From positions 128,001 through 192,000 of IMG/VR virus record IMGVR_UViG_3300022723_000184: a stretch of DNA of 64,000 nucleotides; one strand, given 5' to 3'. A program made the position numbers and the translations under genes. Within the stretch, counting starts at the first letter, position 1. Every line of letters starts with the position of its first letter. Below the pieces are notes generated by a model. The model was not told the origin of the DNA, ran no database searches, and saw nothing but the letters and a program-made list of their open reading frames with translations. Below are positions 5,569 through 61,353 of the stretch, in pieces. The DNA is from a virus (lineage: Duplodnaviria > Caudoviricetes).

Positions 5569-5829
5569 ATGAAGAAAATCATCGAAACAGACGAATCGGA
5601 AGGGCTTGAATCTCTACTCGGCGAGCAAGTCACGCTGTGGTGCGAGTGCTACATCTACGCCGGCAAGTTGATCGGCGTGAACACGCACGATGTGAAGCTC
5701 GCCGACGCAAAGATCGTCTACGAAACCGGTTCGCTCAACGAAGCCGGATTCAAGAATGCTCAGTCGCTCCCTGGCGAATCGTGGTATGTGCGCATCCCTA
5801 AAATCGAATCCTATGGGGTCATGAAATGA
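5569..5829 (+). CDS. hypothetical phage protein
   Basis: RBS AAGGA; motif TLWCECYIYAGKLIGVN...IVYETG. Confidence 0.7.
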   Translation: MKKIIETDESEGLESLLGEQVTLWCECYIYAGKLIGVNTHDVKLADAKIVYETGSLNEAGFKNAQSLPGESWYVRIPKIESYGVMK

Positions 5830-6020
5830 GCCTTGGCGCTGGCGGCAGAATGTCGTGGTCGCGGTCGCGGTCGTGGTCGCGGTCGTGGTCGTGGTCGTGG
5901 TCGCGGTCGTGGTCGGGGTCGCGGTCGTGGTCGCGGTCGTGCTCGGGGTCGCGGTCGTGGTCGCGGTCGTGGTCGCGGTCGTGGTCGTGGTCGCGGTCGG
6001 GGAGCGACAACAACCGATAG
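5826..6020 (+). CDS. Arg/Ser/Trp-rich low-complexity peptide
   Basis: ATGA overlap with upstream gene; encoded by the hexamer repeat. Confidence 0.5.
   Translation: MSLGAGGRMSWSRSRSWSRSWSWSWSRSWSGSRSWSRSCSGSRSWSRSWSRSWSWSRSGSDNNR
5852..6001. repeat. tandem hexamer repeat (GGTCGT/GGTCGC), about 25 units
   Basis: directly visible. Confidence 0.97.
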
Positions 6021-7160: not shown

Positions 7161-8048
7161 TTGGCCAAACGCAAGTTCACGATGCACGAGCAGATGATCT
7201 TCGACGTAATCCGCAAACAGGCGGGCACGCTGTCGAAGGCGGCGTTGGAAGGCGTGATGAACGCCGTCGACGCCAACGCCTCCGAGATCAAGATCACGCT
7301 CGACGAGGGCAGGATGACCCTGTCCGACGACGGTAAGGGGTTCCGGTCCAAGAAGGAGATCGAAGACTACTTCGAGACCTTCGGCCGACCTCACACAGAG
7401 CAAGAGCAGAAGGTCTTCGGCAAGTTCCGTATGGGTCGCGGGCAGATGTTCGCGTTCGGCAGGAACCTGTGGGAGACCGGACGATTCCGGATGGACGTCG
7501 ACGTCAAGGACAAGGGCCTGGATTACGACCTGAAGGAGCTGTCCGAGAAGGAGCGGGCGCCCGGTTGCTCGATCACGATCGAGCTGTACGACCAGTTGCT
7601 GCCGAGTGACGTCGACAAGACGGTCAGGGACCTGGAGCTGTGGTGCAAGTGGGCGCCGCTCCGTGTGGTGCTCAATGACCGGGAGATCAGTTCGGATCCC
7701 GCTGCCCAGGAGTGGCAGTACGAGACGGACGAGGCCTACGTCAGTCTGACGGGTGTCGGCGGTCTGACGATCTACAACCAGGGCGTGTTCGTCATGGACA
7801 TTCCGGCCTACCGGTACGGGACGGGCGGCGAGGTCGTGACCAAGATGGGTCAGGATCTTGACGTCAACTTCGCCCGCAACGACATCCTGGCTTCGTGCCC
7901 GATCTGGAAGAAGGTCTCGCCCTTCATCGACCAGCGGGCCACGGAGAAGAACACCAAGAAGCGGGCCCTGGACGACGGCGCCCGCCAGAGGCTGGCCCAC
8001 CAGTTGAAGGCCGGCGAAGAGATCGAGTCTCATCTTCTAAACCGATGA
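7161..8048 (+). pseudogene. GHKL (HATPase_c/MORC-like) ATPase, 3' end replaced by an inverted CRISPR repeat
   Basis: EGVMNAVDA, DDGKGF, GKFRMGRGQ boxes; terminal residues SHLLNR and the stop codon come from the repeat at 8027-8062. Confidence 0.7.
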
Positions 8049-8062
8049 GCAGGTATTAAGAT
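8027..8062 (-). CRISPR. solitary CRISPR repeat, 35/36 identical to the array consensus
   Basis: minus strand reads ATCTTAATACCTGCTCATCGGTTTAGAAGATGAGAC. Confidence 0.95.
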
Positions 8063-8406: not shown

Positions 8407-9074
8407 AAGGGGTCGGATACGCGGCCTAACCAGTTTACCACCGTCGGGCCGAGGTGGTAGGCGGCGGTCTGCTCCATGTAGACCACGCGATCGCGTTCGG
8501 CCCACTGCTTCGCAAATTGGATGTCGCAGGTCTCGGCGGTCTGAAACCGTTCGGGGTACGGCTTCCGTTGCGAGGTGTGGTAGAGCTGGAAGTAGCCTCG
8601 GACCAGGCCGTGCTCGAAGGCGGCTGAGTCCGGGGGGATGTACGCCAGGCGGGTGTGATACGGGATGAACGGGTCGGCCTGCTTGATCGCATAGCGAGAG
8701 GGTACGACGAACCTTGGCGCCCCGTACAGCTTAGTAGGGTCAGGGACGACCCGGTGCAGTTGGTCGATCGTCTTCTCGGGGATCACGATGTCCGCGTCCA
8801 GGTGTAGTATCCAACCAGGGGACGCATCGAAGATGCCAGCGCACCGGCTTAGCAGGTGCGACAGTGCCTTGCCCTTGTTGAACGGTGCACCGCCCTCGTA
8901 GAAGGCGTCGGTGCGGACAAGAGAAAAGCCCAGGTCCTTGCAGACCTGGGCCGTGTGTTCGTCTTGGTTGTCGGTCACGACGACGACCCTGGGGGTCAGC
9001 CGCTTCCAGGACAGGCCGGCGATCTCCAGGGTGTCGGCGTAGTTGACGCTGACACTGACGATCGTCGGCTGCAT
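8403..9074 (-). CDS. glycosyltransferase (GT-A fold)
   Basis: FNKGKAL and LHLDADI (DxD) motifs; ATG at 9074 coupled to upstream stop. Confidence 0.75.
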   Translation of the reverse strand: MQPTIVSVSVNYADTLEIAGLSWKRLTPRVVVVTDNQDEHTAQVCKDLGFSLVRTDAFYEGGAPFNKGKALSHLLSRCAGIFDASPGWILHLDADIVIPEKTIDQLHRVVPDPTKLYGAPRFVVPSRYAIKQADPFIPYHTRLAYIPPDSAAFEHGLVRGYFQLYHTSQRKPYPERFQTAETCDIQFAKQWAERDRVVYMEQTAAYHLGPTVVNWLGRVSDPF

Positions 9075-21539: not shown

Positions 21540-21575
21540 TCGCCAACAGGCTGCTCATCGACAAGAGGATGAGAC
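21540..21575 (+). CRISPR. degenerate solitary repeat upstream of cas12m
   Basis: CTGCTCATCG-(7 nt)-GATGAGAC vs repeat CTGCTCATCG-(8 nt)-GATGAGAC; 6-bp stem intact; ends 20 nt before the ATG. Confidence 0.7.
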
Positions 21576-21595: not shown

Positions 21596-23365
21596 ATGGG
21601 ATTCAATAAGGACCCAGAGGCCCGCTGTGTGGTTTACCAGTACGGCGGCAAACATCCGACGGAAAACGAAGACGAAGCGATCAACCAGCTCGCCAAGGCG
21701 AACCGTTTTCGGAACCGGCTCGTTGAGTTGGAGCTACAACGACGTGAAGAATACCACGCTGCGTTCTCGGGTTACGGAGACCTGGCGGAGCCGTCAAATC
21801 AGCTTGAGACGCTCAACGAGCAGCTGACCGCTGCGGTGGCAGAACTTAAGGCGTGGAGACAATTGAACGGCACTCGAAGTCAACACCCGACGCTAACCCC
21901 GCAGATCGTTTCGCTACGGGCTCAGGCTCGCCAGCTACGGACACAGATCAAGTCGATCAAGGAAGCGGCCAAAGGCGATCCTACGGTGCAGGCGGCAATC
22001 GAAAAAGCAAACCAGCAGCACCGAGATCAGACCAAAGCTGCGTACGGCGCTGTAAGAGAATCGAACCCGGAGGCCGAGGACGCCAGAGACCGGCATGGGT
22101 TGTTCTGGGGAACGGCCCTCCTAGTTCAAAGGGCAGCGACACAGTTCCAGAAGGGCCCTCCCCCGAGGTACAAACGTTTCGACGGGACGGGAACTATCGG
22201 CGTGCAGCTGCAGAACGGGATGTCTGTGGAGGATCTGTTCACTCCGGGCGGCAGCGTCTGGATTGACCCCGTTCCTCCGGAGGCCTGGGACCCGCAGACG
22301 CCGAGAGGTCAAAGGCGAAAACTCGCAAGAACGATGCTACACATGCGGATCGGCGGGAAGCCGCAGGCCTGGGTGATTCTAAAGCTACCTGTCACCGTGC
22401 ACAGACCGCTGCCTGCAGGAAAACTTATCAAGTGGGTCACGGTCACTCGGCGTAAGTACGGTTCACAGGCGCGGTGGTATGTAAACGTCACGACGGATAT
22501 CAGGTCTGGTGGCACGCTTCACGATGATGTTGCGGCTGCCGGATTTGTGGGTGTCGACCTGGGTTTCAGGTTGTTCAAGCCCGCAGAAAGCAGCTCAGGC
22601 AAGCGATCGCTCCGAGTGGCTGTATGGGCCGGAGATGACGGGGAGACAGGCGAACTTCGCCTCGACGCGAGGTTTATGTCCTACATCTCAAAGGCCGACG
22701 GTTTGAGGTCGATCCGGGACAAGCGGCTTGATCAGATCAGAGCGGCGCTGCTTCCGTTGTGTGACGAGGCGGGTACGCCGGAGTGGTGGAAAGACGACAC
22801 TCAACACATGGCCAAATGGAGGTCTCCTCGAAAGCTGTATCACTTGCTCCACAAGTGGAAAGACAACAGGTGGGATGGCGACAAAACGCTGTTCGATCTG
22901 TTGGTTAAGTGGGTAGTTCAGGACCGTCACCTCCACGTGTGGGAAGCCAACAATCGCCGAAAAGTAGCGGCTCGTCGCCTGGACATGTACCGGAACCTGG
23001 CGGCCTCTTTGAGGCGCAAGTACGCGGTTATCGGGATCGAAGACATCGATTGGCGGATCTGGAGCAAGTTGGCCCTGCCCGAAGAAGAGGAGACCAAGTC
23101 AAAGAAGTTCCGTGTTCAAAAGAAACATGCGGCGGTCGGTCTGCTTGCAGAGACGCTGTCGAATTGCGGGGCACAGGTTGTACGTTTGGATCCCGCTTAC
23201 ACGACGAAGCGGTGCAACGCCTGCGGCAAGATCACCGAATTTGACGCTGACCGGCACCTGCGACATACGTGCGAACATTGCCATGCGGAGTGGGACCAAG
23301 ACTACAATGCGGCAAAGAACCTGCAAGACATGGCGAGCGGCAACGCCGTAACGCAAACCGCGTAG
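21596..23365 (+). CDS. cas12m: type V CRISPR effector, Cas12m (V-U1/V-M)-like, 589 aa
   Basis: RuvC-I GVDLG, RuvC-II IGIED, zinc finger CNAC/CEHC, RuvC-III DQDYNAA; RFDGTGTIGVQLQ and WRSPR motifs recalled from Cas12m; array 137 bp downstream. Confidence 0.85.
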   Translation: MGFNKDPEARCVVYQYGGKHPTENEDEAINQLAKANRFRNRLVELELQRREEYHAAFSGYGDLAEPSNQLETLNEQLTAAVAELKAWRQLNGTRSQHPTLTPQIVSLRAQARQLRTQIKSIKEAAKGDPTVQAAIEKANQQHRDQTKAAYGAVRESNPEAEDARDRHGLFWGTALLVQRAATQFQKGPPPRYKRFDGTGTIGVQLQNGMSVEDLFTPGGSVWIDPVPPEAWDPQTPRGQRRKLARTMLHMRIGGKPQAWVILKLPVTVHRPLPAGKLIKWVTVTRRKYGSQARWYVNVTTDIRSGGTLHDDVAAAGFVGVDLGFRLFKPAESSSGKRSLRVAVWAGDDGETGELRLDARFMSYISKADGLRSIRDKRLDQIRAALLPLCDEAGTPEWWKDDTQHMAKWRSPRKLYHLLHKWKDNRWDGDKTLFDLLVKWVVQDRHLHVWEANNRRKVAARRLDMYRNLAASLRRKYAVIGIEDIDWRIWSKLALPEEEETKSKKFRVQKKHAAVGLLAETLSNCGAQVVRLDPAYTTKRCNACGKITEFDADRHLRHTCEHCHAEWDQDYNAAKNLQDMASGNAVTQTA

Positions 23366-23502: not shown

Positions 23503-24247
23503 ATCGTAATACCTGCTCATCGGTTTAGAAGATGAGACGCGGCATTGATTGCCTTCTTGAGTTGCTGCTCCAACATCGTAATACCTGCTCATCGGTTTAG
23601 AAGATGAGACATCGCCGCATCGCTGGAAGCGGGCGTGGCGTCGGCGGATCGTAATACCTGCTCATCGGTTTAGAAGATGAGACCTTTCTCTGTGTCCGAG
23701 ATAACGGGGTCACTAATGTCATCGTAATACCTGCTCATCGGTTTGGAAGATGAGACAAGCATCCGAGCAGCCGCTACAAGGACAAGATCGGCATCGTAAT
23801 ACCTGCTCATCGGTTTAGAAGATGAGACTAGTCGGGCAATTGCTCGAACGGCACAGAGATATCGTCATCGTAATACCTGCTCATCGGTTTAGAAGATGAG
23901 ACGCTTACCGGTGGCCGAGGCCAAGGCGCGATGGAGAACATCGTAATACCTGCTCATCGGTTTAGAAGATGAGACACGGTGGATCCGGTCGAGCGGCTGA
24001 TCCTTCACATCATCGTAATACCTGCTCATCGGTTTAGAAGATGAGACCCGGTGATCGACGCGGTCCTCGAGAACGCCGAGGACATCGTAATACCTGCTCA
24101 TCGGTTTAGAAGATGAGACAAGTGGATCAGGTTCTTCTCATCGTAATACCTGCTCATTGGTTTAGAAGATGAGACGCGGACTGCCCCGAGATGCGGCGCC
24201 GGCTGTGGGTAATCGTAATACCTGCTCATCGGTTTGGAAGATGAGAC
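23503..24247 (+). CRISPR. CRISPR array, 11 x 36-bp repeats and 10 spacers (36-38 nt, one of 20 nt)
   Basis: repeat ATCGTAATACCTGCTCATCGGTTTAGAAGATGAGAC with CTCATC/GATGAG stem; single-base variants in repeats 4, 10 and 11. Confidence 0.99.
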
Positions 24248-35568: not shown

Positions 35569-35697
35569 CGTGCGGTGGTGGCCTTGGTGTGGTCTCGCCC
35601 TGTAGGTTGGCGAGCTGGCATTGTTAATGCCCAAGACCTGTGGTGGTCTTCACATCTTAGCGCCAGCCACCCACCAACGCAAGGAAAGTGGTGCGGC

Positions 35698-39636: not shown

Positions 39637-40706
39637 TGGCTGAGTATTTGAATCCAAGTTTGCACCGCCGGCTCGTGCGGGACTTCGGGCACGTCAAGGT
39701 CTCCAACGAAGGGGAGAAGATGCTCGCTAAGTACAAGCGGGACTTCTTCTCAGGGGAAGACAAGCTCGACGTGATGTACCCGGGCGAGTACTACCAGGTG
39801 AACTGTCCCAAGTGCAGCGACACCCGGCACCGGCTTTACATCAACCACATGTGGGGCGTCCGCGACGAGCGAGGCCGCCGGAACCTGTGGCTGATGGTCT
39901 GCTACAACGAGGGGTGCTTCTCCTCGTACCGCGACCGGGAGGACCTGTTCGACCGGCTGGAAGAGCGCGCTGGCGTCCTGGGCAAGGCCAGGATCCACGA
40001 GGGCAAAGAAGTCGACCTGGACTCGATCGAGATCGAGCCGCCGGGCCCGATTACGCGGCTGGACAAACTGCCGCCTGAGCACCCGGCCAACCGATACTTG
40101 GTCAGCAGGTTTTACGATCCGGAGCGGCTGGGGAGGTGCTACGGAGTCGGTTACTGCCAAGAGAGCCTGTATTACCTGGCTCGAAACCGCGTGTACGCAC
40201 CGTTGTATTTCGGCGGAAAGCTGCGCGGTTGGCAGTGCCGGTACGTGGGCGAGATCGACAAGCGGAACGAAAACCCTCCGCCGAAGTGGTGGAGTTGTCC
40301 CAACATGAAGAAGTCCCACGTCATCTACAACTACGACCAGATGAAGAAGTGGCAGACCGGGGTGATCGTGGAGGGCCCCGGCGACGTCTGGGGCTTTGGT
40401 CCGATGGCCGGCGCTACGCTCGGCGCCACCATGTCTCCCCAGCAGCAGCGGCTGTTCACGGCCGCGTTCCGGAAGCAGGGCGGCGTGCTCCTCTACGACC
40501 CCGAGGCCATGGTGGCCAAGGACAAACACGGCAAGCTCAAGATGGAGCGGCTGGCTGAAAAGCTGTCGTCCGGCACCAAGCTGGGCGTGGCTCCGGTCAC
40601 CCTTCCGTACGGAGATCCCGGAAGCCTGGACCGACGGTTCATGCGAGAGTTCGTGACAAAGGAGGCCGCGTCGATGGGCGTGAAGGTCTCCTGGAAGAAG
40701 CGGTGA
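39633..40706 (+). CDS. DNA primase
   Basis: zinc site CPKC...CYNEGC; TOPRIM IVEGPGD, LLYD. Confidence 0.85.
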   Translation: MMAEYLNPSLHRRLVRDFGHVKVSNEGEKMLAKYKRDFFSGEDKLDVMYPGEYYQVNCPKCSDTRHRLYINHMWGVRDERGRRNLWLMVCYNEGCFSSYRDREDLFDRLEERAGVLGKARIHEGKEVDLDSIEIEPPGPITRLDKLPPEHPANRYLVSRFYDPERLGRCYGVGYCQESLYYLARNRVYAPLYFGGKLRGWQCRYVGEIDKRNENPPPKWWSCPNMKKSHVIYNYDQMKKWQTGVIVEGPGDVWGFGPMAGATLGATMSPQQQRLFTAAFRKQGGVLLYDPEAMVAKDKHGKLKMERLAEKLSSGTKLGVAPVTLPYGDPGSLDRRFMREFVTKEAASMGVKVSWKKR

Positions 40707-43700
40707 CGATGGCCAAGCAGAAACGACGCAAGGTGATCAAGGACCTGGATCGTCACCGCAGCCGCGGTAAGGCGAAGGAGGTCCAGGACGAGCTGGACGG
40801 GATCGGGATGTACCCGCTGGACGCTCCGGGTATGCCCATGCCGGGCCCGGATTTCCTGGAGAACGCTCGGAGGCTCGGGGACAAGAACAAGGAGCGGACC
40901 GACAAGGTCACGCTGCCCGATGGTCGGCGGAAGACCGTTAAGTCGATCGAGCCCGGCGAGTGGCTGGAGGTGTTGCACGCTCGGGCCCTGCGGGATCCTA
41001 ACTTCAACATGTCGATCCAGGTGAAGGCGGGCCTACGCAAGCAGGTCAATTTCGTGCCCGGTCACATCTGGGGCCAGCACCAGAAGGAGTACGCCCAGGG
41101 CATCGACCTGCCGGTGGACGGGCCGAGGCCGGCCGACATCATGGTCATTGGCAAGATGCCGGGCCAGACCGAGGTCCAGGAGAAACGCAACTTCGTGGGC
41201 GAGTCCGGGGCCCTGCTCCTGGAGGTGCTCCGGGATCTCAAGATCAAGGGCATGGGCAAGTGGTACATCACGAACCTGTGCAAGTTCCACCCGCCTGACG
41301 GGCAGTCGACGCTCAAATCGGGCTGGATCAAAGACTGCATGCCGTTGCTCCACCAAGAGCTGCGGATCGTCAGGCCCAAGTACATCTTGTGCCTGGGTGC
41401 CGATGCCTCGAAGGAGCTGTTGGGCAAGAAGAACAACGTCCACTACATGGACGGCCGGGTCGTGGAGCTGGAGTACCCGATCAACGTGGATGGTGAGGAG
41501 GTGCTGCACAAGTCGCACGTGATGACCGTGGTCCATCCGGCCGCGGTAGCCCGGGCGCCGGAGCAGCGACGCATGTTGGAGCGAGGACTTTCCCGCTTCG
41601 ACATGCTCACCAAGGGCATCCGCTGGGACCTGGAAGAGAAGGACATCGACCACCGGGCCATCCGTACGCTGGAAGAACTCAAGTCGCTTCTCTGGGAGAT
41701 CGAGAATGACCCAACCAAGAAAGACAGGGTCATCGCCGTCGACGCCGAGTGGCACGGCGAACACCCCGTCAATAAAGGAAGCTATGTACGAACGGTTCAA
41801 TTTGCGTGGCAAGAGAAGAGAGCTTGTGCGGTCGTACTTCGAGGTCCTGGCGGAAAGGTTACGTTCGTCGACGAGGACGGAAAGCCCGCCATCAAGCGAG
41901 GACTCAGGCTCCTAAGCAAGTTCTTCAAAAACAAGCGGGTGGTCGGCCACTTCTTTGTGGCTGACCTTGAGTGGTTGGTCGACATCGGCCTGGATCTTGT
42001 CCCGAGCTACCGCGTGCCCCTCCGGGACAAGCGGGTGGACCAGTTCAGCGGCCGACTCAAGCGGCGGTACGAGAAGCTGGGCTTCAGCGACCGCGACTAC
42101 GTTCCCGCTTGGCTCCGCACCAAGTACGAGGGCGGCGCCGACACCGGCCTCATGGCACACGCTATCGAGGAGACCGCCATGCTGGGCTTGGAAGGCCTGG
42201 CCATGCGGTACACGACCGTGCCCCGGTACGACATCCCGCTGCACGAGTGGCGGGAGCAGTTTTGCAAGGACCGCGGTCTCAAGTCGAAGGACTTGGAGGG
42301 GTACGGCGAGTGCCCCGACGAGATCCTGATCCCGTACGGCATCTACGACGCCGACGCTACCCTGCGGCTCTTCTACGCGCTGAACAAGTTGCTCGACTAC
42401 GACTACGAGGGCAACTGCTGCCGCGAGCCGTTCTGGGAGGCGATGATCGCGTGCCCCGCGATCTTGGAGATGCACCAGACCGGCATCCCCGTCCACAAGC
42501 CACGCATCGACTACCTCACCGAGGTGTTCATGGAGGCCCGGACGGAGATGGAGGCCAAGATCCGCACCTGGGCCAAGTGGTCGGAGTTCAACGTTCGGTC
42601 GGTCCAGCAGGTGCGGGAGTTCCTGTTCGGCGAGCAGCTGAATGGGAAGGTGACCAAGGACGGCGGGACCGTGAGGATCCGCCCCAAGGGCGCCAAGAGC
42701 CTGTACGTTGAGCCCCTGCTAGACACGGGCAAGCCTCCCACCCAGTGGTGGCAGGTCAAAGAGAAGGGCCTGGAGGGCGAACGCAGCCCGTCCACCAACA
42801 AGGCGGTGCTCGCCATCTTGGCCCAGGAAAACGAGGAGGCATCGGACCAGATCAACTGGCTCCGGGACTATCGCTTCCTCGACCAGGTGCTCAAGAGCCT
42901 TCTGAGACCGCCGGTCACCGATGACGACGGCAACTGGCTGATGGAGTCGGACGGCGATGGGCTGGGCGGCCTGCTGTTCGACGCCGGCCTGGCCAGCGTG
43001 GTCTGCAACGACGGTCGGGTCCGCACCCACCTCTATCCCACGACTGAAACGGGGCGGTGGCGTTCGGCTCGACCCAACCTGCAGAACATCAGCAAGCAGA
43101 GAGATGCCGACTACGTCCGGATGCTTGGCGAGAAGTACAAGCACAAGCTCCGCTCGATTCTCAAGGCCCCTCCCGGGTACCTGCTGATCGAGGCCGACTA
43201 CATCGGGGCCGAGCTGTACGGCATGGCCACGATGTCCGGCGACGAGGTGATGATCGACCACTGTCAGCGAAACCAGCTGCCGGAGGACGACCCCAACTTC
43301 TATGACATCCACTCGAACGTGGCGGTGTTCGCGTTCAAGCTGGACTGTCCGCCCACGAAGGCGGGGCTCAAGGCGATCAACAAGGCCCACCTGCGGATCG
43401 TGGCCAAGAGCGTGATCTTCGGCATCGCGTACGGACGTGGTGCCAAGGCCATTGCGCTGGCGGCCAAGGAGCAGGGCGTGGAGATCACGGCCGACGAGGC
43501 CCAGCAGGTGATCGACACGATCTTCGACATGTACCCTGGCCTCCGTCCGTTTTTCGAGGAGTGCAAGAGCCGGGCTATCAACGACGGCTGGCTTTGCCAC
43601 TGCTTCGGCCGGTTCCGCCGGTTCCCGCGGACGGACGACTACAAGCTCCAGGGCGAGTTCGAGCGGCAGGCGACCAACTTCCCGATCCAGGGGATGATCG

Positions 43701-44044
43701 CCAGCGCCGTGGACCGGGCGGTCGCCGAGATCTACGAGTACCGGCACGAGGTCGGGGTGCCCGACATGTACAAGATGGTCCTGCAGATCCACGACGCCGT
43801 GGTCCTGCTGGTCCCGTACGAGCACGCCGAGCGGGTGGTGGACGAGGTGCTGCCTGTTTGCATGCAGCAGCGGGTCCCCATCTACCCGACCAACCTGGCT
43901 GGCGTCCCCACCGGAAAGGGCCCCTATACCCTTGGCATCGACACCGAGGTCATGGTCCACTGGGGCGAACACGTCACTAAGGAACAGGCCGCCAAGTGGG
44001 GCGTGCCTAGCGTCACCGCGGGCGGCACGAAGCTGGTCGCTTGA
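40703..44044 (+). CDS. polA: family A DNA polymerase with N-terminal UDG family 4-like domain and 3'-5' exonuclease
   Basis: DAEW exonuclease, TGRW..RPNLQNI, ADYIGAE motif A, R..AK...FGIAYG motif B, QIHDA motif C; UDG-like GKMPG..E...FVGESG. Confidence 0.93.
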   Translation: MTMAKQKRRKVIKDLDRHRSRGKAKEVQDELDGIGMYPLDAPGMPMPGPDFLENARRLGDKNKERTDKVTLPDGRRKTVKSIEPGEWLEVLHARALRDPNFNMSIQVKAGLRKQVNFVPGHIWGQHQKEYAQGIDLPVDGPRPADIMVIGKMPGQTEVQEKRNFVGESGALLLEVLRDLKIKGMGKWYITNLCKFHPPDGQSTLKSGWIKDCMPLLHQELRIVRPKYILCLGADASKELLGKKNNVHYMDGRVVELEYPINVDGEEVLHKSHVMTVVHPAAVARAPEQRRMLERGLSRFDMLTKGIRWDLEEKDIDHRAIRTLEELKSLLWEIENDPTKKDRVIAVDAEWHGEHPVNKGSYVRTVQFAWQEKRACAVVLRGPGGKVTFVDEDGKPAIKRGLRLLSKFFKNKRVVGHFFVADLEWLVDIGLDLVPSYRVPLRDKRVDQFSGRLKRRYEKLGFSDRDYVPAWLRTKYEGGADTGLMAHAIEETAMLGLEGLAMRYTTVPRYDIPLHEWREQFCKDRGLKSKDLEGYGECPDEILIPYGIYDADATLRLFYALNKLLDYDYEGNCCREPFWEAMIACPAILEMHQTGIPVHKPRIDYLTEVFMEARTEMEAKIRTWAKWSEFNVRSVQQVREFLFGEQLNGKVTKDGGTVRIRPKGAKSLYVEPLLDTGKPPTQWWQVKEKGLEGERSPSTNKAVLAILAQENEEASDQINWLRDYRFLDQVLKSLLRPPVTDDDGNWLMESDGDGLGGLLFDAGLASVVCNDGRVRTHLYPTTETGRWRSARPNLQNISKQRDADYVRMLGEKYKHKLRSILKAPPGYLLIEADYIGAELYGMATMSGDEVMIDHCQRNQLPEDDPNFYDIHSNVAVFAFKLDCPPTKAGLKAINKAHLRIVAKSVIFGIAYGRGAKAIALAAKEQGVEITADEAQQVIDTIFDMYPGLRPFFEECKSRAINDGWLCHCFGRFRRFPRTDDYKLQGEFERQATNFPIQGMIASAVDRAVAEIYEYRHEVGVPDMYKMVLQIHDAVVLLVPYEHAERVVDEVLPVCMQQRVPIYPTNLAGVPTGKGPYTLGIDTEVMVHWGEHVTKEQAAKWGVPSVTAGGTKLVA

Positions 44045-44733: not shown

Positions 44734-46521
44734 ATGGCAAAACAACGAAAAGGAAGTCGGCTGAAGCCTCGCGGCGCCGGCCAGTACAGCAACAAGACAC
44801 ACGCCAAGGGCGACAGCTCGATGCCGCCCGACGACAGGTCGCTCAAGACCAACCTGGCCCGCGTCACCCTGGTCCGGCCCAAGTTCACCGGCGGCCCCCT
44901 GTGGTTCCGCCCGTGGCCGTGCCCGGACTTCGCCGATCCGGAGAAGCTGGTCCCCGGCCGCGAGTCCACCGAGGCCCGTGGCCAGAGCCAATGGATCGTC
45001 CGGGCCGAGATGGCCCCATACATCGGCCTCAACGATCCGGCCTGCGAGAAGGTGAGCTTCATCACCCGCTACCCGTGGGACCGTGAGGCCAAGCGGAACA
45101 ACCCGTACCGCGTCCTCTACTTCGCGGCCAAGGACGCTCACGAGGCCGGCTCCTTCGGGCCCGGCCGCAAGTGGGACTCCTACTGGAACAAGATCCTCAG
45201 CGGCAAGAAGGGGCGTGGCGCCGAGCTGGGCTCCCCCTCGCCAAAGTGGTTCGTTCAGGGCGTGGTGTACGCTAACGGCGAGAAGGACTACACGGCCGAT
45301 CGCGACCTGCCGCTGGGCATGGACCCGGCGGACGACCTGGTCGTCATCCAGATGTCGTCGAGCGCCGGCGGCAAGCTCCTGGACCTCCTTGACATCCCGA
45401 AGAAGAACTTCGACGGGGATCCCGAGGAGACCCCTTGGGCGGCGTACAAGTACGGCGACTCTTGCGGCATCGTGAACCCGAAGACCGGGGGCATCGATGG
45501 CGGCCTGATCATGGGCCTGTTCAACCCGGAGAAGACCAAGGACATCGTGAAGAACACGTCCTGGGATCCGGACGAGAAGGACCGTGACATCAAGGGCTAC
45601 GAGGCGGCCATCAGGGCCAGCTTTAAGGGCGCGGACGGCGACGTCTACAAGCCCTCGCTCGACGCCGCCCAGGTGCAGCACATCGGCGAGAAGATACAGT
45701 TCTGGTGGGACGACGTCGACGAGGCCGGCAACATCCAGTCTCCCGGCCTCCTGTGGGTCCCGTCGATCGAGGAGCAGTGCGTCCTGATCGCCAAGGCCTT
45801 CCGCACCGTCCCGCGGCTCCTGCAATACGCCTGGGCCGACTTCGAGGACGAGTTCCTCACCGACGACGTGCGTGGTGTGCTCAACGCCCGCAAGTCGGCG
45901 GTCATGCCGGGCACGGACGGCGACGAGGACGACGATGATGACGACGGCTTCGAGGATAAGAAGCCGCCGAAGCGTGGGGGCGCCAAGCAGGATCCCACAC
46001 AGGCCTCGCAGGACGACGACGATGACGACGAGTTCGAGGACGAGGGTGAAGAGGAGTCCGAAGCCGAAGCCGAAGGCGACGAAGGCGAAGAGGAGGGTGA
46101 CGACGATGGCGACGACACCTTCCCCGACGACACGGTCGACGACGGCGAGGGCGAGGAAGAGCCCGAGTCCGAGGACGGCGACGACGAGGGCCTCGAAGAC
46201 GATGACGACGAGGACTTCGGCGAAGACGACGAAGACTTCGGCGAGGACGCTGGCGAGGAGGAAGGGGAGGAAGAGCCCGAGGGCGACGACTCCGACGACT
46301 CTGAGGACGAGGACGGCGAAGAGGAGGAAGACTCTGAGAAGGCCATGAGGGCCTCGCTCGACGCCGCCAAGGCCCGCCAGGCCAAGCGTGCCACGAAGGC
46401 CGCCCCGGCCAAGAAGTCGACGTCGAAGAAGACGACCGCCAAGAAGACGGGCTCCAAGAAGGCCACGTCGAAGAAGACGACGAAGAAGACCTCGGCCAAG
46501 AAGACCAAGGCCAAGGGCTGA
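44734..46521 (+). CDS. hypothetical protein with long acidic tract and basic AKKT tail (possible ssDNA-binding protein)
   Basis: composition directly visible; SSB role inferred from position before the recA-like gene. Confidence 0.7.
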   Translation: MAKQRKGSRLKPRGAGQYSNKTHAKGDSSMPPDDRSLKTNLARVTLVRPKFTGGPLWFRPWPCPDFADPEKLVPGRESTEARGQSQWIVRAEMAPYIGLNDPACEKVSFITRYPWDREAKRNNPYRVLYFAAKDAHEAGSFGPGRKWDSYWNKILSGKKGRGAELGSPSPKWFVQGVVYANGEKDYTADRDLPLGMDPADDLVVIQMSSSAGGKLLDLLDIPKKNFDGDPEETPWAAYKYGDSCGIVNPKTGGIDGGLIMGLFNPEKTKDIVKNTSWDPDEKDRDIKGYEAAIRASFKGADGDVYKPSLDAAQVQHIGEKIQFWWDDVDEAGNIQSPGLLWVPSIEEQCVLIAKAFRTVPRLLQYAWADFEDEFLTDDVRGVLNARKSAVMPGTDGDEDDDDDDGFEDKKPPKRGGAKQDPTQASQDDDDDDEFEDEGEEESEAEAEGDEGEEEGDDDGDDTFPDDTVDDGEGEEEPESEDGDDEGLEDDDDEDFGEDDEDFGEDAGEEEGEEEPEGDDSDDSEDEDGEEEEDSEKAMRASLDAAKARQAKRATKAAPAKKSTSKKTTAKKTGSKKATSKKTTKKTSAKKTKAKG

Positions 46522-46534
46522 TCGCAGTCGGTGG

Positions 46535-46569
46535 GGGGAGGGCCGAACAACCGGCCCTCCCCTATTTTT
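46535..46569 (+). terminator. rho-independent terminator
   Basis: GGGGAGGGCCG / CGGCCCTCCCC stem followed by TATTTTT. Confidence 0.8.
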
Positions 46570-46581
46570 GACCGCTGGGGA

Positions 46582-46617
46582 GTCGTAATGTCCGCTCACC
46601 GGCTTGGAAGATGAGAC
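46582..46617 (+). CRISPR. solitary degenerate CRISPR repeat upstream of the recA-like gene
   Basis: GTCGTAATGTCCGCTCACCGGCTTGGAAGATGAGAC, 30/36 to repeats 4 and 11; 11 nt before ATG 46629. Confidence 0.88.
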
Positions 46618-46628
46618 GAAGGAACCCG

Positions 46629-48158
46629 ATGGCTAAAAGAAAACCCCGTAAGCCGACACCGAAGCCGGACGTTGAGGGCGACGACTTCGACGAGTTCCCG
46701 GACGAGGTTCGGGAGCAGTCGGAGCCCAGGGCGTCCAAGAAGGCGGCCGAGAAGAAGTCCGCCAAGAAGGCGGCGAGCAAGAAGCGGGTGGCCCGAAAGG
46801 ATCCCCGCGATCAAGAGCAGAAGGGCGAGCAGCGTGGCGAGGTCTCCGACAAACGTGCGCCCAGACCCGCAAGACCCACGGTGAACCTCGACAAACGCAA
46901 GCTGACCAAGAAGCAGAAGGGGCAGCTCGAAGAGTGGCGGGGCAACACGAAGGGCAAGAAGCTCGACAGCTATTTCGCTGGCCAGGTGGAGCAGGCCCGC
47001 AAACAGTTCGGTCACCGAGCGGTCATGGCCGCGACCGAGGCCGCCAACCTGGTCATCGTGATCCCGTGCCCGAGCCTTGCGTTCGAGTACCTGATCGCCC
47101 AGGACGGTTTCCCGCTTGGACTGGTGCTGCACCTGGCGGGTCCTCCTGGCTCGCTCAAGTCGTCGCTGCTCTTGGAGTTCATCCGCTGGTTCCGCATGGC
47201 GGGCGGCGGTGGCATCCTGATGGAGAACGAGACCAAGTACAGCCCGGACCTGCCCAAGTCGATCCTCGGCTACGAGGACGCCGAGGTGGGTTTGATCCTC
47301 AACCGGTGCGTTTCGGTCGAAGACTGGCAGGACAAGCTGACCTACTGGATCGACACCCAGAAGAAGGGCCTCATCGGCACGAAGGAAGAGCCCGGCCCCG
47401 GTCGCACGGTTCCGATTCTGTTCGGCGTCGACTCGATCATGGGCAAGGCCAGCTACGAGACCCAGGAGAAGGTGGCCAAGGAAGGTCACGCCGAGCGCAG
47501 CTTCCCCGTGGAAGCAATGAAGATGACCACCTACATGAAGTCGGTCCCGCAGTGGATCGACGAGTGGCCCTTTGCCCTCGTCCTCAACAACCATCTCAAG
47601 ATCGGCAAGGATGACACCGGCCGCGAGGTGAAGAGGACGGCTGGCGGCGTGGGCGTCAACTTCCAGGAGTCCTGGGAGCTGGAGCCCAGCGTGGTCAAGA
47701 GCAAGATCGGCTCAGCGGACTGGGACGGCGTGCAGATCCGCATCCGTTGCCGCAAGAACTCCATGGGCCCCACGCACCGGCAGATCGAGACCCGGATGCT
47801 CTGGTGGGAAGAGGAGAACAAGGAAACGGGCGAGTGGGAGCAGATCACCGTCTGGGACTGGGACTGGGCGACGATCAAGATGCTCAGCACCCTCAAGAGC
47901 CGCCCAGCGGCCCGGCTCAAGGACGCGGGCTTTCACCTGCAGACGCCCAAGGTCAGCGACGTGGAAAACACGGCCTGGTCCTCGAACCTCGGCATGAAGG
48001 CGAAAGACGCCAAGCCGTGGCAGGAGGTCGGCCGCATGATCCGTGAGGACGATCAGCTGATGGAGACGCTCCGCACGTGCCTGTCGATCAAGCGGCGGCC
48101 GTTGCTGGATGGCGATTACCTGGATCAACTTGAGAGCTTGAGGAAGGACTTGCCGTGA
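46629..48158 (+). CDS. RecA/UvsX-like recombinase
   Basis: GFPLG...AGPPGSLKSS Walker A variant, FGVDSI Walker B, LNNH, AGGVGVNF; long charged N-terminus. Confidence 0.82.
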   Translation: MAKRKPRKPTPKPDVEGDDFDEFPDEVREQSEPRASKKAAEKKSAKKAASKKRVARKDPRDQEQKGEQRGEVSDKRAPRPARPTVNLDKRKLTKKQKGQLEEWRGNTKGKKLDSYFAGQVEQARKQFGHRAVMAATEAANLVIVIPCPSLAFEYLIAQDGFPLGLVLHLAGPPGSLKSSLLLEFIRWFRMAGGGGILMENETKYSPDLPKSILGYEDAEVGLILNRCVSVEDWQDKLTYWIDTQKKGLIGTKEEPGPGRTVPILFGVDSIMGKASYETQEKVAKEGHAERSFPVEAMKMTTYMKSVPQWIDEWPFALVLNNHLKIGKDDTGREVKRTAGGVGVNFQESWELEPSVVKSKIGSADWDGVQIRIRCRKNSMGPTHRQIETRMLWWEEENKETGEWEQITVWDWDWATIKMLSTLKSRPAARLKDAGFHLQTPKVSDVENTAWSSNLGMKAKDAKPWQEVGRMIREDDQLMETLRTCLSIKRRPLLDGDYLDQLESLRKDLP

Positions 48159-60623: not shown

Positions 60624-61113
60624 GAAGTTGATGGCCGGGCTCCCAGAGGCCACGAGGCTCGCCCTTGAGGCGGCAGAGCCCCAGGAGTTCGAGCTGCCCG
60701 AGGACACGGTGCCCGGTTTCTGTATGGTCGAGTGTCACGAGGGTGAGTTCCCGCTGCTCCGGATCTTCGCCACCCTCGAAGGCCTGGTCGCTCGCATGGC
60801 CAAGTTGGAGGGTCAGGACGTTACGGTCCATCCGTTTTGGGGAATTCCTCTACCCTTCAGCACGGCCCCTAACCGGGTGCTTCTGTTGCCCGGGGACAAG
60901 GCGATCGGCATCAACAAGTCGCAGAGGCCGGTGGACGTCAGTGAAAAGACCCTGGAGGTCCAGGAGGACTGTTTCCTGGGCATGCCCGAGCTTTCGATTG
61001 CACCGCCCAGCTATATCAAGGAAGATGCGGCCAGGGCGGAGGCCTTGGCCGCTGCTGCCGACGCGGACGATACGTTCGACGATGACGACGAAACTTTATC
61101 GTCACCTAAATAA
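60487..61113 (+). CDS. hypothetical protein
   Basis: ORF, codon bias. Confidence 0.6.
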   Translation: MSTESNRKSKDRASKFVSSLSPAAQCQLAGSATATSAAGDGRRAAEKLMAGLPEATRLALEAAEPQEFELPEDTVPGFCMVECHEGEFPLLRIFATLEGLVARMAKLEGQDVTVHPFWGIPLPFSTAPNRVLLLPGDKAIGINKSQRPVDVSEKTLEVQEDCFLGMPELSIAPPSYIKEDAARAEALAAAADADDTFDDDDETLSSPK

Positions 61114-61353
61114 CGGCTCAAAACGCGTCAAAATACATGCAGGCAACTTAGCCTGCTCAATCAGGACCCCGGAAGGCTCCGTCGGGCATTTCTGCTCGGC
61201 GGGGTCTTTTTCTTTTCACATCCATGGAACAGACCCAGTACCAGATGAGCCGACCTTCGGGTCACCTGAGACGGGACCGGTCTGTTCCCTGGATCTGAAC
61301 CACGTGGCGGCCGGAGCCGCCGAAACAAGACACCTCTCAAGTAGGAGAACGTC

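Follow-up and report, generated by a model that had tools for sequence, protein, structure and literature searches.

INTRODUCTION

The effectors of type V-M CRISPR systems, Cas12m, are DNA-binding silencers which in the known systems need no tracrRNA (PMC10442227, PMC11013384). They process their own pre-crRNA within the repeat (PMC11013384). The crRNA scaffold of MmCas12m2 and GoCas12m is built from a 36-nt repeat with a 6-bp helix, the 3′ strand of which occupies positions −8 to −3 and is followed by AC, and with a second short helix, a pseudoknot, between the 5′ part of the repeat and the loop (PMC10442227, PMC11013384). [quoted passage not shown]

Single repeats in intergenic regions of viral genomes have been described as solitary repeat units (SRUs) and RNA anti-CRISPRs (Racrs) (Camara-Wilpert et al. 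2023, PMC10651486, where the SRUs of Faure et al. 2019 are cited). SRUs as described so far lack an association with cas genes and imitate the system of a host, and phage units of this kind can act as RNA anti-CRISPRs (PMC10651486). A Cas12m effector with an array has also been reported from the myxophage MV-1, as the first in a phage; it is compact, lies next to its array and is accompanied by no adaptation genes, and its spacers have no identified targets (preprint 10.64898/2026.09.14.751636). The same report covers the effector and the array and does not mention dispersed solitary repeats.

Here we analysed a window of 64,000 nt, bases 128001–192000 of the 201,946-bp record of an uncultured phage in IMG/VR (62.5% G+C, judged to be ∼90% complete). 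The original prediction had placed a solitary CRISPR repeat between a terminator and the ribosome binding site of a recA-like gene in this window, in a phage with an array and an effector gene of its own. All positions refer to the window unless they are given as genome positions. Degenerate repeat-derived RNAs, such as CreA of CreTA, crlRNAs and the long-form tracrRNA, reportedly recruit an effector for gene regulation rather than for immunity. Such crRNA-like regulators act in trans, using a partly matching guide on promoter DNA, whereas the unit described below would act in cis, on the mRNA of which it is part.

RESULTS

Location of the repeat unit

The + strand holds nearly all genes of the phage and all elements of this locus. 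The gene for a 595-aa acidic/basic protein is followed by an intrinsic-terminator-like hairpin of 12 bp, 10 of them G-C, at 46534–46563, with a T tail (ATTTTT) up to 46569; it was found with the terminator scan and is visible in the sequence. Next comes the leader-like stretch GACCGCTGGGGA (46570–46581), which we recognised in the alignment of cassette flanks, and then the repeat unit itself (46582–46617), assigned to the Cas12m (type V-M) repeats by identity scan, fold and covariance model. The segment in guide position (46618–46628) contains GAAGGAA, with the Shine-Dalgarno (SD) sequence GAAGGA at +1 to +6 after the repeat, and the AUG of the downstream gene (46629–48158, 509 aa) occupies +12 to +14. 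Thus the unit starts 12 nt after the terminator and ends 11 nt before the ATG, and both distances agree with those originally given.

The downstream gene encodes a UvsX/RecA-like recombinase. Its product matches Pfam RecA with 27.8 bits (cut-off 27) and the UvsX-like recombinases of PHROG 97 with an E-value of 1.3e-13, which supports the recA-like annotation. As the homologues begin with MAKK, we placed the start at the ATG at 46629 and not at the in-frame ATG at 46611 within the repeat. A blastn search against GenBank phages returned low-complexity matches in the acidic protein gene only, and single-protein pattern searches of IMG/VR with the recombinase and with Cas12m gave no close relative.

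We also looked for a promoter. The scan for sigma-70-type promoters around the unit found none. The terminator tail TATTTT (46564–46569) also fits a TANNNT −10 box and may have a promoter role, which we infer from this fit. With a terminator upstream and no clear promoter, transcription of the unit would need either read-through or this weak box. Together with the preceding T, GACCGCTGGGGA resembles the TGACCG/TGACCAGG stretch by which the −10 box is separated from the repeat in the antisense cassettes described below. Similarity to the end of array spacer 10 is seen in the last six bases of GACCGCTGGGGA.

Identity and fold of the repeat unit

The unit agrees with the array consensus at 29 of 36 positions and with array repeats 4 and 11, which both carry a G at position 25, at 30 of 36; our repeat comparison thus reproduced the match that had been predicted. 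The last 14 nt at the 3′ end of the unit are identical to those two repeats. In addition, the 18-mer TTGGAAGATGAGACGAAG, which the original prediction had listed as common to the unit and to the terminal repeat plus trailer, is present at both sites. In order to judge whether such a degree of identity could arise by chance we counted the windows in the genome with at most seven mismatches to the consensus. There are 19 of them, at an analytic expectation of 1.7e-6, and the best random match in 30 simulated genomes still had at least 12 mismatches. The unit reaches 47.2 bits with the covariance model R1, a score for a sequence that was itself in the training set.

The unit has the 36-nt length of the known Cas12m scaffolds and could form their helix before the terminal AC as well as their pseudoknot. 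It differs from them by a loop of 9 nt (8 nt in the known scaffolds) and by one C·A pair in the stem. Five of the six stem pairs are kept and the broken pair, which had been noted before as C-A, falls on alignment columns 18:30. The pseudoknot helix retains all three pairs, one of them as G·U. The C·A is the only broken stem cell among the 16 distinct repeat variants that we aligned; it falls on the most variable stem pair, where the functional-looking array of the Cas12m-type locus L069 has U·G. For the free RNA of the unit the minimum-energy fold is not the canonical hairpin. An alternative RNA structure joining the unit to the start codon (46570–46650) did not do better than shuffled sequences (z = +1.07).

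Taken together, we regard it as close to certain that the unit is an inserted copy of the phage's own Cas12m repeat. Since it contains the sole broken stem pair of the 16 variants and has a non-canonical minimum-energy fold, the copy may be weak or decaying.

Effector gene and array

The cas12m gene (21596–23365, + strand) encodes an effector of 589 aa. Its product aligns over nearly the full length with solved Cas12m structures (PDB 23vw_A, Cas12m, E-value 5.9e-67; 8hhl, Cas12m2, E-value 1.5e-26) and also matches the Pfam family Cas12f1-like TNB. In the CRISPR array at 23503–24247 (+ strand) 10 spacers alternate with 11 repeats, each 36 nt long, and the leader contains a TATAAT box whose end is 7 nt upstream of repeat 1. 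The effector gene and the array with the matching repeat thus lie 23 kb upstream of the recombinase unit in the same genome; as in MV-1, a compact Cas12m is located next to its array and adaptation genes are lacking.

We compared the array spacers and the segments behind the repeat units with the relatives and found no protospacer from which the PAM of the phage Cas12m could be derived. The best match of spacer 8 to the polymerase gene of L066 (23 of 36) was rejected as chance, given that the phage's own polymerase gene scores equally.

Dispersed repeat family

The whole genome was scanned by mismatch counting and subsequently with a covariance model built from the 16 distinct variants. The scan with the model yielded 27 units, the 11 repeats of the array and about 16 dispersed repeat-like units. 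The recombinase unit was originally described as solitary. This is correct for its neighbourhood, where the covariance scan detected no second unit within 10 kb, but about 16 dispersed copies exist in the genome, the recombinase unit among them.

The members of the family share the fold given above, with a 6-bp helix that has its 3′ strand at −8 to −3 before the terminal AC and a short helix (pseudoknot) between the 5′ part and the loop. In the alignment of the 16 variants 97% of the cells are paired and six of the nine pairs change on both sides; none of 500 shuffles reached these values. Units which are too diverged to be detected by identity keep fully compensated stems (CGCACC/GGTGTG, CATATC/GATATG and CCCGCC/GGCGGG), which points to selection for the fold throughout the family. 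Alignment columns 1–5 are poorly conserved, in agreement with the disorder of the first seven repeat nucleotides in the Cas12m2 complex.

Seven units are in sense orientation and lie directly in front of genes (genome positions 67849, 72751, 100873, 101887, 125944, 149541 and 174582, the last being the recombinase unit). Their ends lie at distances of 11, 12, 16, 16, 17, 20 and 24 nt from a start codon; an SD is located in between, and for six of the seven this SD falls within +1 to +15 after the repeat. The unit at genome position 67849 has exactly the layout of the recombinase unit, i.e. terminator, unit, SD and ATG. The unit at genome position 149541 precedes the effector gene: it is a degenerate repeat-like hairpin (21541–21575, + strand, 30.3 bits) which ends 20 nt before the ATG of cas12m and is a candidate for autoregulation. 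The genes behind the sense units are those for baseplate J, the recombinase, Cas12m, a small membrane protein and proteins of unknown function. Assuming uniform placement, we estimate from the coordinates a probability of ∼1e-4 that the seven sense units lie so close to a start codon, and perhaps 1e-2 after allowing for the constraints on insertion.

The nine antisense units are directed against neighbouring genes. Most of them have a −10-like box 5–8 nt before the repeat, as in the array leader, and we refer to these units as cassettes. The motif TAYAMT[GA]MC[CG] occurs nine times in the genome, and in seven of these cases it lies directly before a repeat. For example, the unit at 8027–8062 (− strand), with one mismatch to the array repeat and its own TACAAT box, runs antisense into the end of a + strand gene. 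A diverged unit with a compensated stem at 8826–8862 (+ strand) faces the 3′ end of one of the rare − strand genes, and another at 35592–35627 (− strand) has the compensated stem CTCGCC/GGCGAG. The sequence that follows the promoter-led unit at genome position 124139 recurs with 28 of 29 positions at 61125–61153. We did not retain this second site as a target: it is flanked by GATTGAG, it has no adjacent T/C-rich PAM, and the two loci share further motifs and a terminator. In our view the match reflects duplication of an intergenic module and does not prove a target.

Comparison with relatives and origin of the insertion

We compared the intergenic region with that of 14 syntenic relatives, of which three are metagenome contigs (58–71% protein identity) and 11 are IMG/VR genomes (31–54%). 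All 14 have the same gene order and the same junction, consisting of stop codon, hairpin, a short T/C-rich tail, SD and ATG, and in none of them does a repeat occur at this position. The intergenic length is 56–68 nt in the three closest relatives compared to 107 nt here. This excess of 39–51 nt fits an inserted repeat together with a short leader.

The 11 IMG/VR relatives, six of which are at least 90% complete, were scanned over their whole length and contained neither cas12m nor any match to the repeat model. As positive controls, the same search returned 27 matches in the phage itself and 13 in another Cas12m-type phage contig. In the Cas12m-type phage contig G001, for which 30% of the genome was available, we detected an array and nearby units and no dispersed ones. 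Given 14 relatives without the repeat, 11 of them without cas12m or units, we conclude that the insertion of the recombinase unit is specific to this lineage and accompanies the CRISPR locus. The original prediction had named an equal presence of the unit in relatives that never carried the locus as the finding that would speak against it, and the 11 genomes scanned whole showed the opposite, having neither the unit nor cas12m.

The source of the copy is less clear-cut. The flanks resemble those of array repeat 11, both in the six bases before the repeat (TGGG.A) and in the four after it (GAAG), for which our own estimate with uniform base frequencies gives ∼1e-4. The body of the repeat is closest (32 of 36) to a dispersed subfamily at genome positions 5222 and 7620, above any repeat of the array, and four of the six differences from repeat 11 are common to this subfamily and the recombinase unit. 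The common origin with repeat 11 that had been suggested is therefore plausible for the flanks, but the body is nearer to the subfamily. The terminal repeat of an array is usually the oldest one, and repeat 11 still has the G at position 25. A comparison of these sequences would be consistent with the G+C-richer subfamily preserving an older state of the array repeat, and at this older stage the end of the array or a leader cassette may have been the source of the recombinase unit.

We searched one genome each of 185,579 species with the repeat pattern and found no cellular array with a matching repeat. In metagenomes the pattern gave 55 matches, nearly all of them chance and among them one recurrent gut sequence; the only true look-alike was L061. 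The L061 unit apparently falls within the 3′-terminal part of an ORF, and this ORF overlaps the following gene.

DISCUSSION

A possible cis-acting handle on the recombinase mRNA

The locus combines features of two known arrangements and departs from both. As with the described SRUs, a single repeat lies in a viral intergenic region, and the sister units that follow directly on a −10 box are SRU-like in this respect as well. However, the repeat is matched by an effector and an array in the phage itself, many units stand in sense orientation just before ribosome binding sites, and the search of species genomes revealed no host system with this repeat. The recombinase unit itself has neither the −10 motif at cassette distance nor a sigma-70-type promoter, and an SD and a 509-aa ORF follow directly. 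Compared to the repeat-spacer units of a Cas12m array, the repeat stands alone in an mRNA leader, and SD and AUG take the place of the spacer and the next repeat.

Our best reading, which we think quite possible, though short of probable, is that the unit serves Cas12m as a handle in cis on the recombinase mRNA, for translational or processing control. Cas12m would recognise the stem and pseudoknot scaffold in the mRNA leader as it does the handle of a crRNA, and it may trim the RNA 5′ of it. The following ∼15 nt, with the SD at +1 to +6 and the AUG at +12 to +14, would then be held in guide position, so that the initiation region would be occluded and the level of Cas12m would determine translation initiation or mRNA fate. 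The unit before cas12m would provide autoregulation by the same means, a point of likeness to CreA/CreTA. To our knowledge Cas12m has been known as a DNA binder and its regulating an mRNA in cis has not been described.

Of the options raised in the original prediction, placing the recombinase under effector control is the one best supported, on grounds of anatomy: the sense orientation, the near-intact fold, the SD and AUG in guide position, six sister units with equal layout, one of them before cas12m, and the restriction of the units to the genome that bears cas12m. The covariation in the sister units and the co-occurrence with cas12m point the same way. The closeness to the ATG is modest evidence at the recombinase locus, as there are few sites at which an insertion would leave both terminator and RBS undamaged. 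Transcription through the unit, binding of Cas12m to the leader and an effect on translation would all be needed for this control. The genes behind the sense units share no functional theme, which counts against the handle.

A regulator acting in trans would need a second site. With the 40 nt after the unit we found no second match in the genome beyond 13 of 14 nt and no DNA target with a PAM. Given about 16 scattered copies, the recombinase unit among them, the phage may use Cas12m on its own mRNAs. We tentatively extend the handle to a wider reading, one that we would sooner doubt than assert, in which Cas12m is an RNA-binding regulator with a regulon of its own: handles before the ribosome binding sites would gate translation or processing in cis for the recombinase, baseplate J, the small membrane protein gene, cas12m and others, and the promoter-led antisense units would form a second arm.

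Alternative explanations

Several other readings have to be weighed against the handle. The insertion could turn the start of the recombinase gene into the guide of a crRNA that silences related competitors without the insertion, with their T/C-rich tail serving as PAM and the repeat end protecting the phage's own copy. A Cas12 crRNA consists of repeat and guide only and Cas12m effectors bind DNA beside T- and C-rich PAMs (PMC11013384), such a tail lies directly 5′ of the RBS in the relatives, and the antisense units with their own −10 box read into gene ends, which would suit the production of guides. We nevertheless consider this unlikely, as no target turned up in any collection searched, the guide-like 18-mer is absent from IMG/VR and even in the closest relative the homologous site agrees with the guide at only 8 of 17 positions (our own count). 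Different cassettes have no common motif on their 5′ side and no PAM of the effector emerged from the spacers; the recurrence behind the unit at genome position 124139, at first sight favourable, is better seen as the duplicated module described above, and the unit before cas12m is left unexplained. A neutral or decaying footprint, i.e. a cassette or terminal array unit that was copied in by recombination, persists only because terminator and RBS were left intact and is now without function, strikes us as similarly unlikely. It would account for the sole uncompensated stem mismatch among the 16 variants, for a canonical fold that is not the minimum-energy one and for flanks like those of repeat 11 and of the cassette leader, which suggest a copy-paste origin; the location is moreover largely dictated by what an insertion can spare. 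On the other hand, far more diverged sister units keep their stem by compensatory changes, the mismatch falls on the most tolerant pair, the pseudoknot helix is kept through a G·U pair and the 3′ 14 nt are intact.

The unit might instead help expression, if the weak TATTTT promoter, a 5′ end protected by Cas12m, or both freed the message from the terminator hairpin and stabilised it. There are 12 nt between the end of the TANNNT box and the repeat, promoter-led cassettes have the TGACCG stretch as well, the effectors cut pre-crRNA within the repeat (PMC11013384), and with a terminator directly before the gene in all relatives a new start point could be of use. But the promoter scan found nothing, the box is 12 nt from the repeat compared to 5–8 nt in the other cassettes, and the relatives express the recombinase gene without such a module, so that we hold an activating 5′-end module to be improbable. 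Still less credit is due to a Racr-like decoy, an RNA mimic that soaks up the Cas12m-type effector of a host or buffers that of the phage, which had been among the functions first proposed. SRUs are a precedent for it (PMC10651486) and several units in the genome have promoters of their own; the repeat, however, matches the phage's own array and effector, the recombinase unit sits in an mRNA leader without a strong cassette promoter and is not a small-RNA gene, and the species genomes and metagenomes offered no cellular array and a single look-alike, all of which makes the decoy very improbable. Hardly credible at all is the further proposal that the unit is a relic of an array once located at the recombinase gene. 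The 18 bases shared with repeat 11 and its trailer and the similar six bases upstream would agree with it, yet the junction of terminator, RBS and ATG is uninterrupted in the 14 syntenic relatives, the proposal would have to cover about 15 further dispersed units as well, and neither a spacer-like remnant nor a second repeat is found nearby; synteny thus contradicts it.

Significance

So far solitary repeats of phages have been known as decoys against host immunity, and Cas12m as a DNA-binding silencer. New is a phage which bears the effector and also a structure-conserving family of its own repeats before ribosome binding sites, including that of the effector gene. If the units make guides from phage sequence, this would be a new way for a phage to arm itself against close relatives without spacer acquisition. 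If Cas12m binds the leaders, nature would provide an example of a CRISPR effector that acts on mRNAs from the genome encoding it, and with it a ready-made compact system for programmable translational control. Should the regulon exist as proposed, it would place a CRISPR effector in the post-transcriptional control of a virus's own genes.

Neighbouring genes and tandem repeats

The solitary repeat unit at window 46582-46617 (+ strand), just before the RBS of the UvsX/RecA-like recombinase gene, lies downstream of the gene for a 595-aa acidic protein (window 44734-46521). This protein is extremely acidic with a long Asp/Glu run and a Lys-rich tail, and no family match was found for it. Both the position of the gene and the Lys-rich C-terminus are conserved in all relatives examined. 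A single ORF (window 40703-44044) encodes a family A DNA polymerase of 1113 aa together with a uracil-DNA glycosylase superfamily domain at the N-terminus and a 3'-5' exonuclease domain, and the polymerase of the related phage L067 shows the same fusion. We also observed a run of ∼190 nt of tandem GTCGYG-type hexamers (repeat family D3) at window 5828-6019.

Array irregularities and the unit at genome 124139

Spacer 9 of the CRISPR array (window 24120-24139) is only 20 nt long, compared to 36-38 nt for all other spacers. In the adjoining repeat 10 a C-to-T change results in a G.U closing pair.

Outside the array, the promoter-led unit at genome 124139 is followed after 64 nt by a second, degenerate repeat with a score of 20.9 bits. 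Because of the second repeat, the locus (genome 124039-124174, - strand, ∼3.9 kb before the window) looks like a two-repeat mini-array with a TATAAT box of its own. The sequence 3' of this unit recurs with 28/29 identity on the - strand at window 61125-61153 (genome 189125-189153), which is intergenic and directly past a gene ending at 61113. The copy is flanked by GATTGAG, and there is no adjacent T/C-rich PAM. Since the GTTATTTAGGT motif and a terminator ending in TTTTTCTTTTCAC are common to both loci, the copy may have arisen by duplication of an intergenic module, or it may be a self-target.

Related repeats on other contigs

The IMG/VR phage contig G001 (105,713 bp) contains an array with a related 36-nt repeat and, ∼110 nt past it, one promoter-led solitary unit (L009 5950-5985) immediately preceded by TATACT. 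No dispersed units were seen within the 30% of this genome that was scanned. The metagenome contig SDBT01226636.1, an unrelated contig with 54% G+C, carries a lone repeat (L061 2270-2305) closely resembling this phage's diverged ATGCCAGC...CGGCTTACAAG subfamily. The repeat appears to lie within the 3' end of a 102-aa ORF that overlaps the next gene, and an AGGAGG-ATG follows 34 nt downstream.

A palindrome near the cassettes

A palindrome with the pattern AAAAGTACTTTT (alternatively AAGTGCTTTTGA) occurs at genome 46834, 53646, 125931 and 29724 and at about window 63051 (- strand). Two of these sites are without any repeat. In two antisense cassettes the palindrome is located immediately 5' of the -10 box, and it also adjoins the 5' side of the sense-class unit at genome 125944. 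The palindrome may be an operator bound by a phage repressor.
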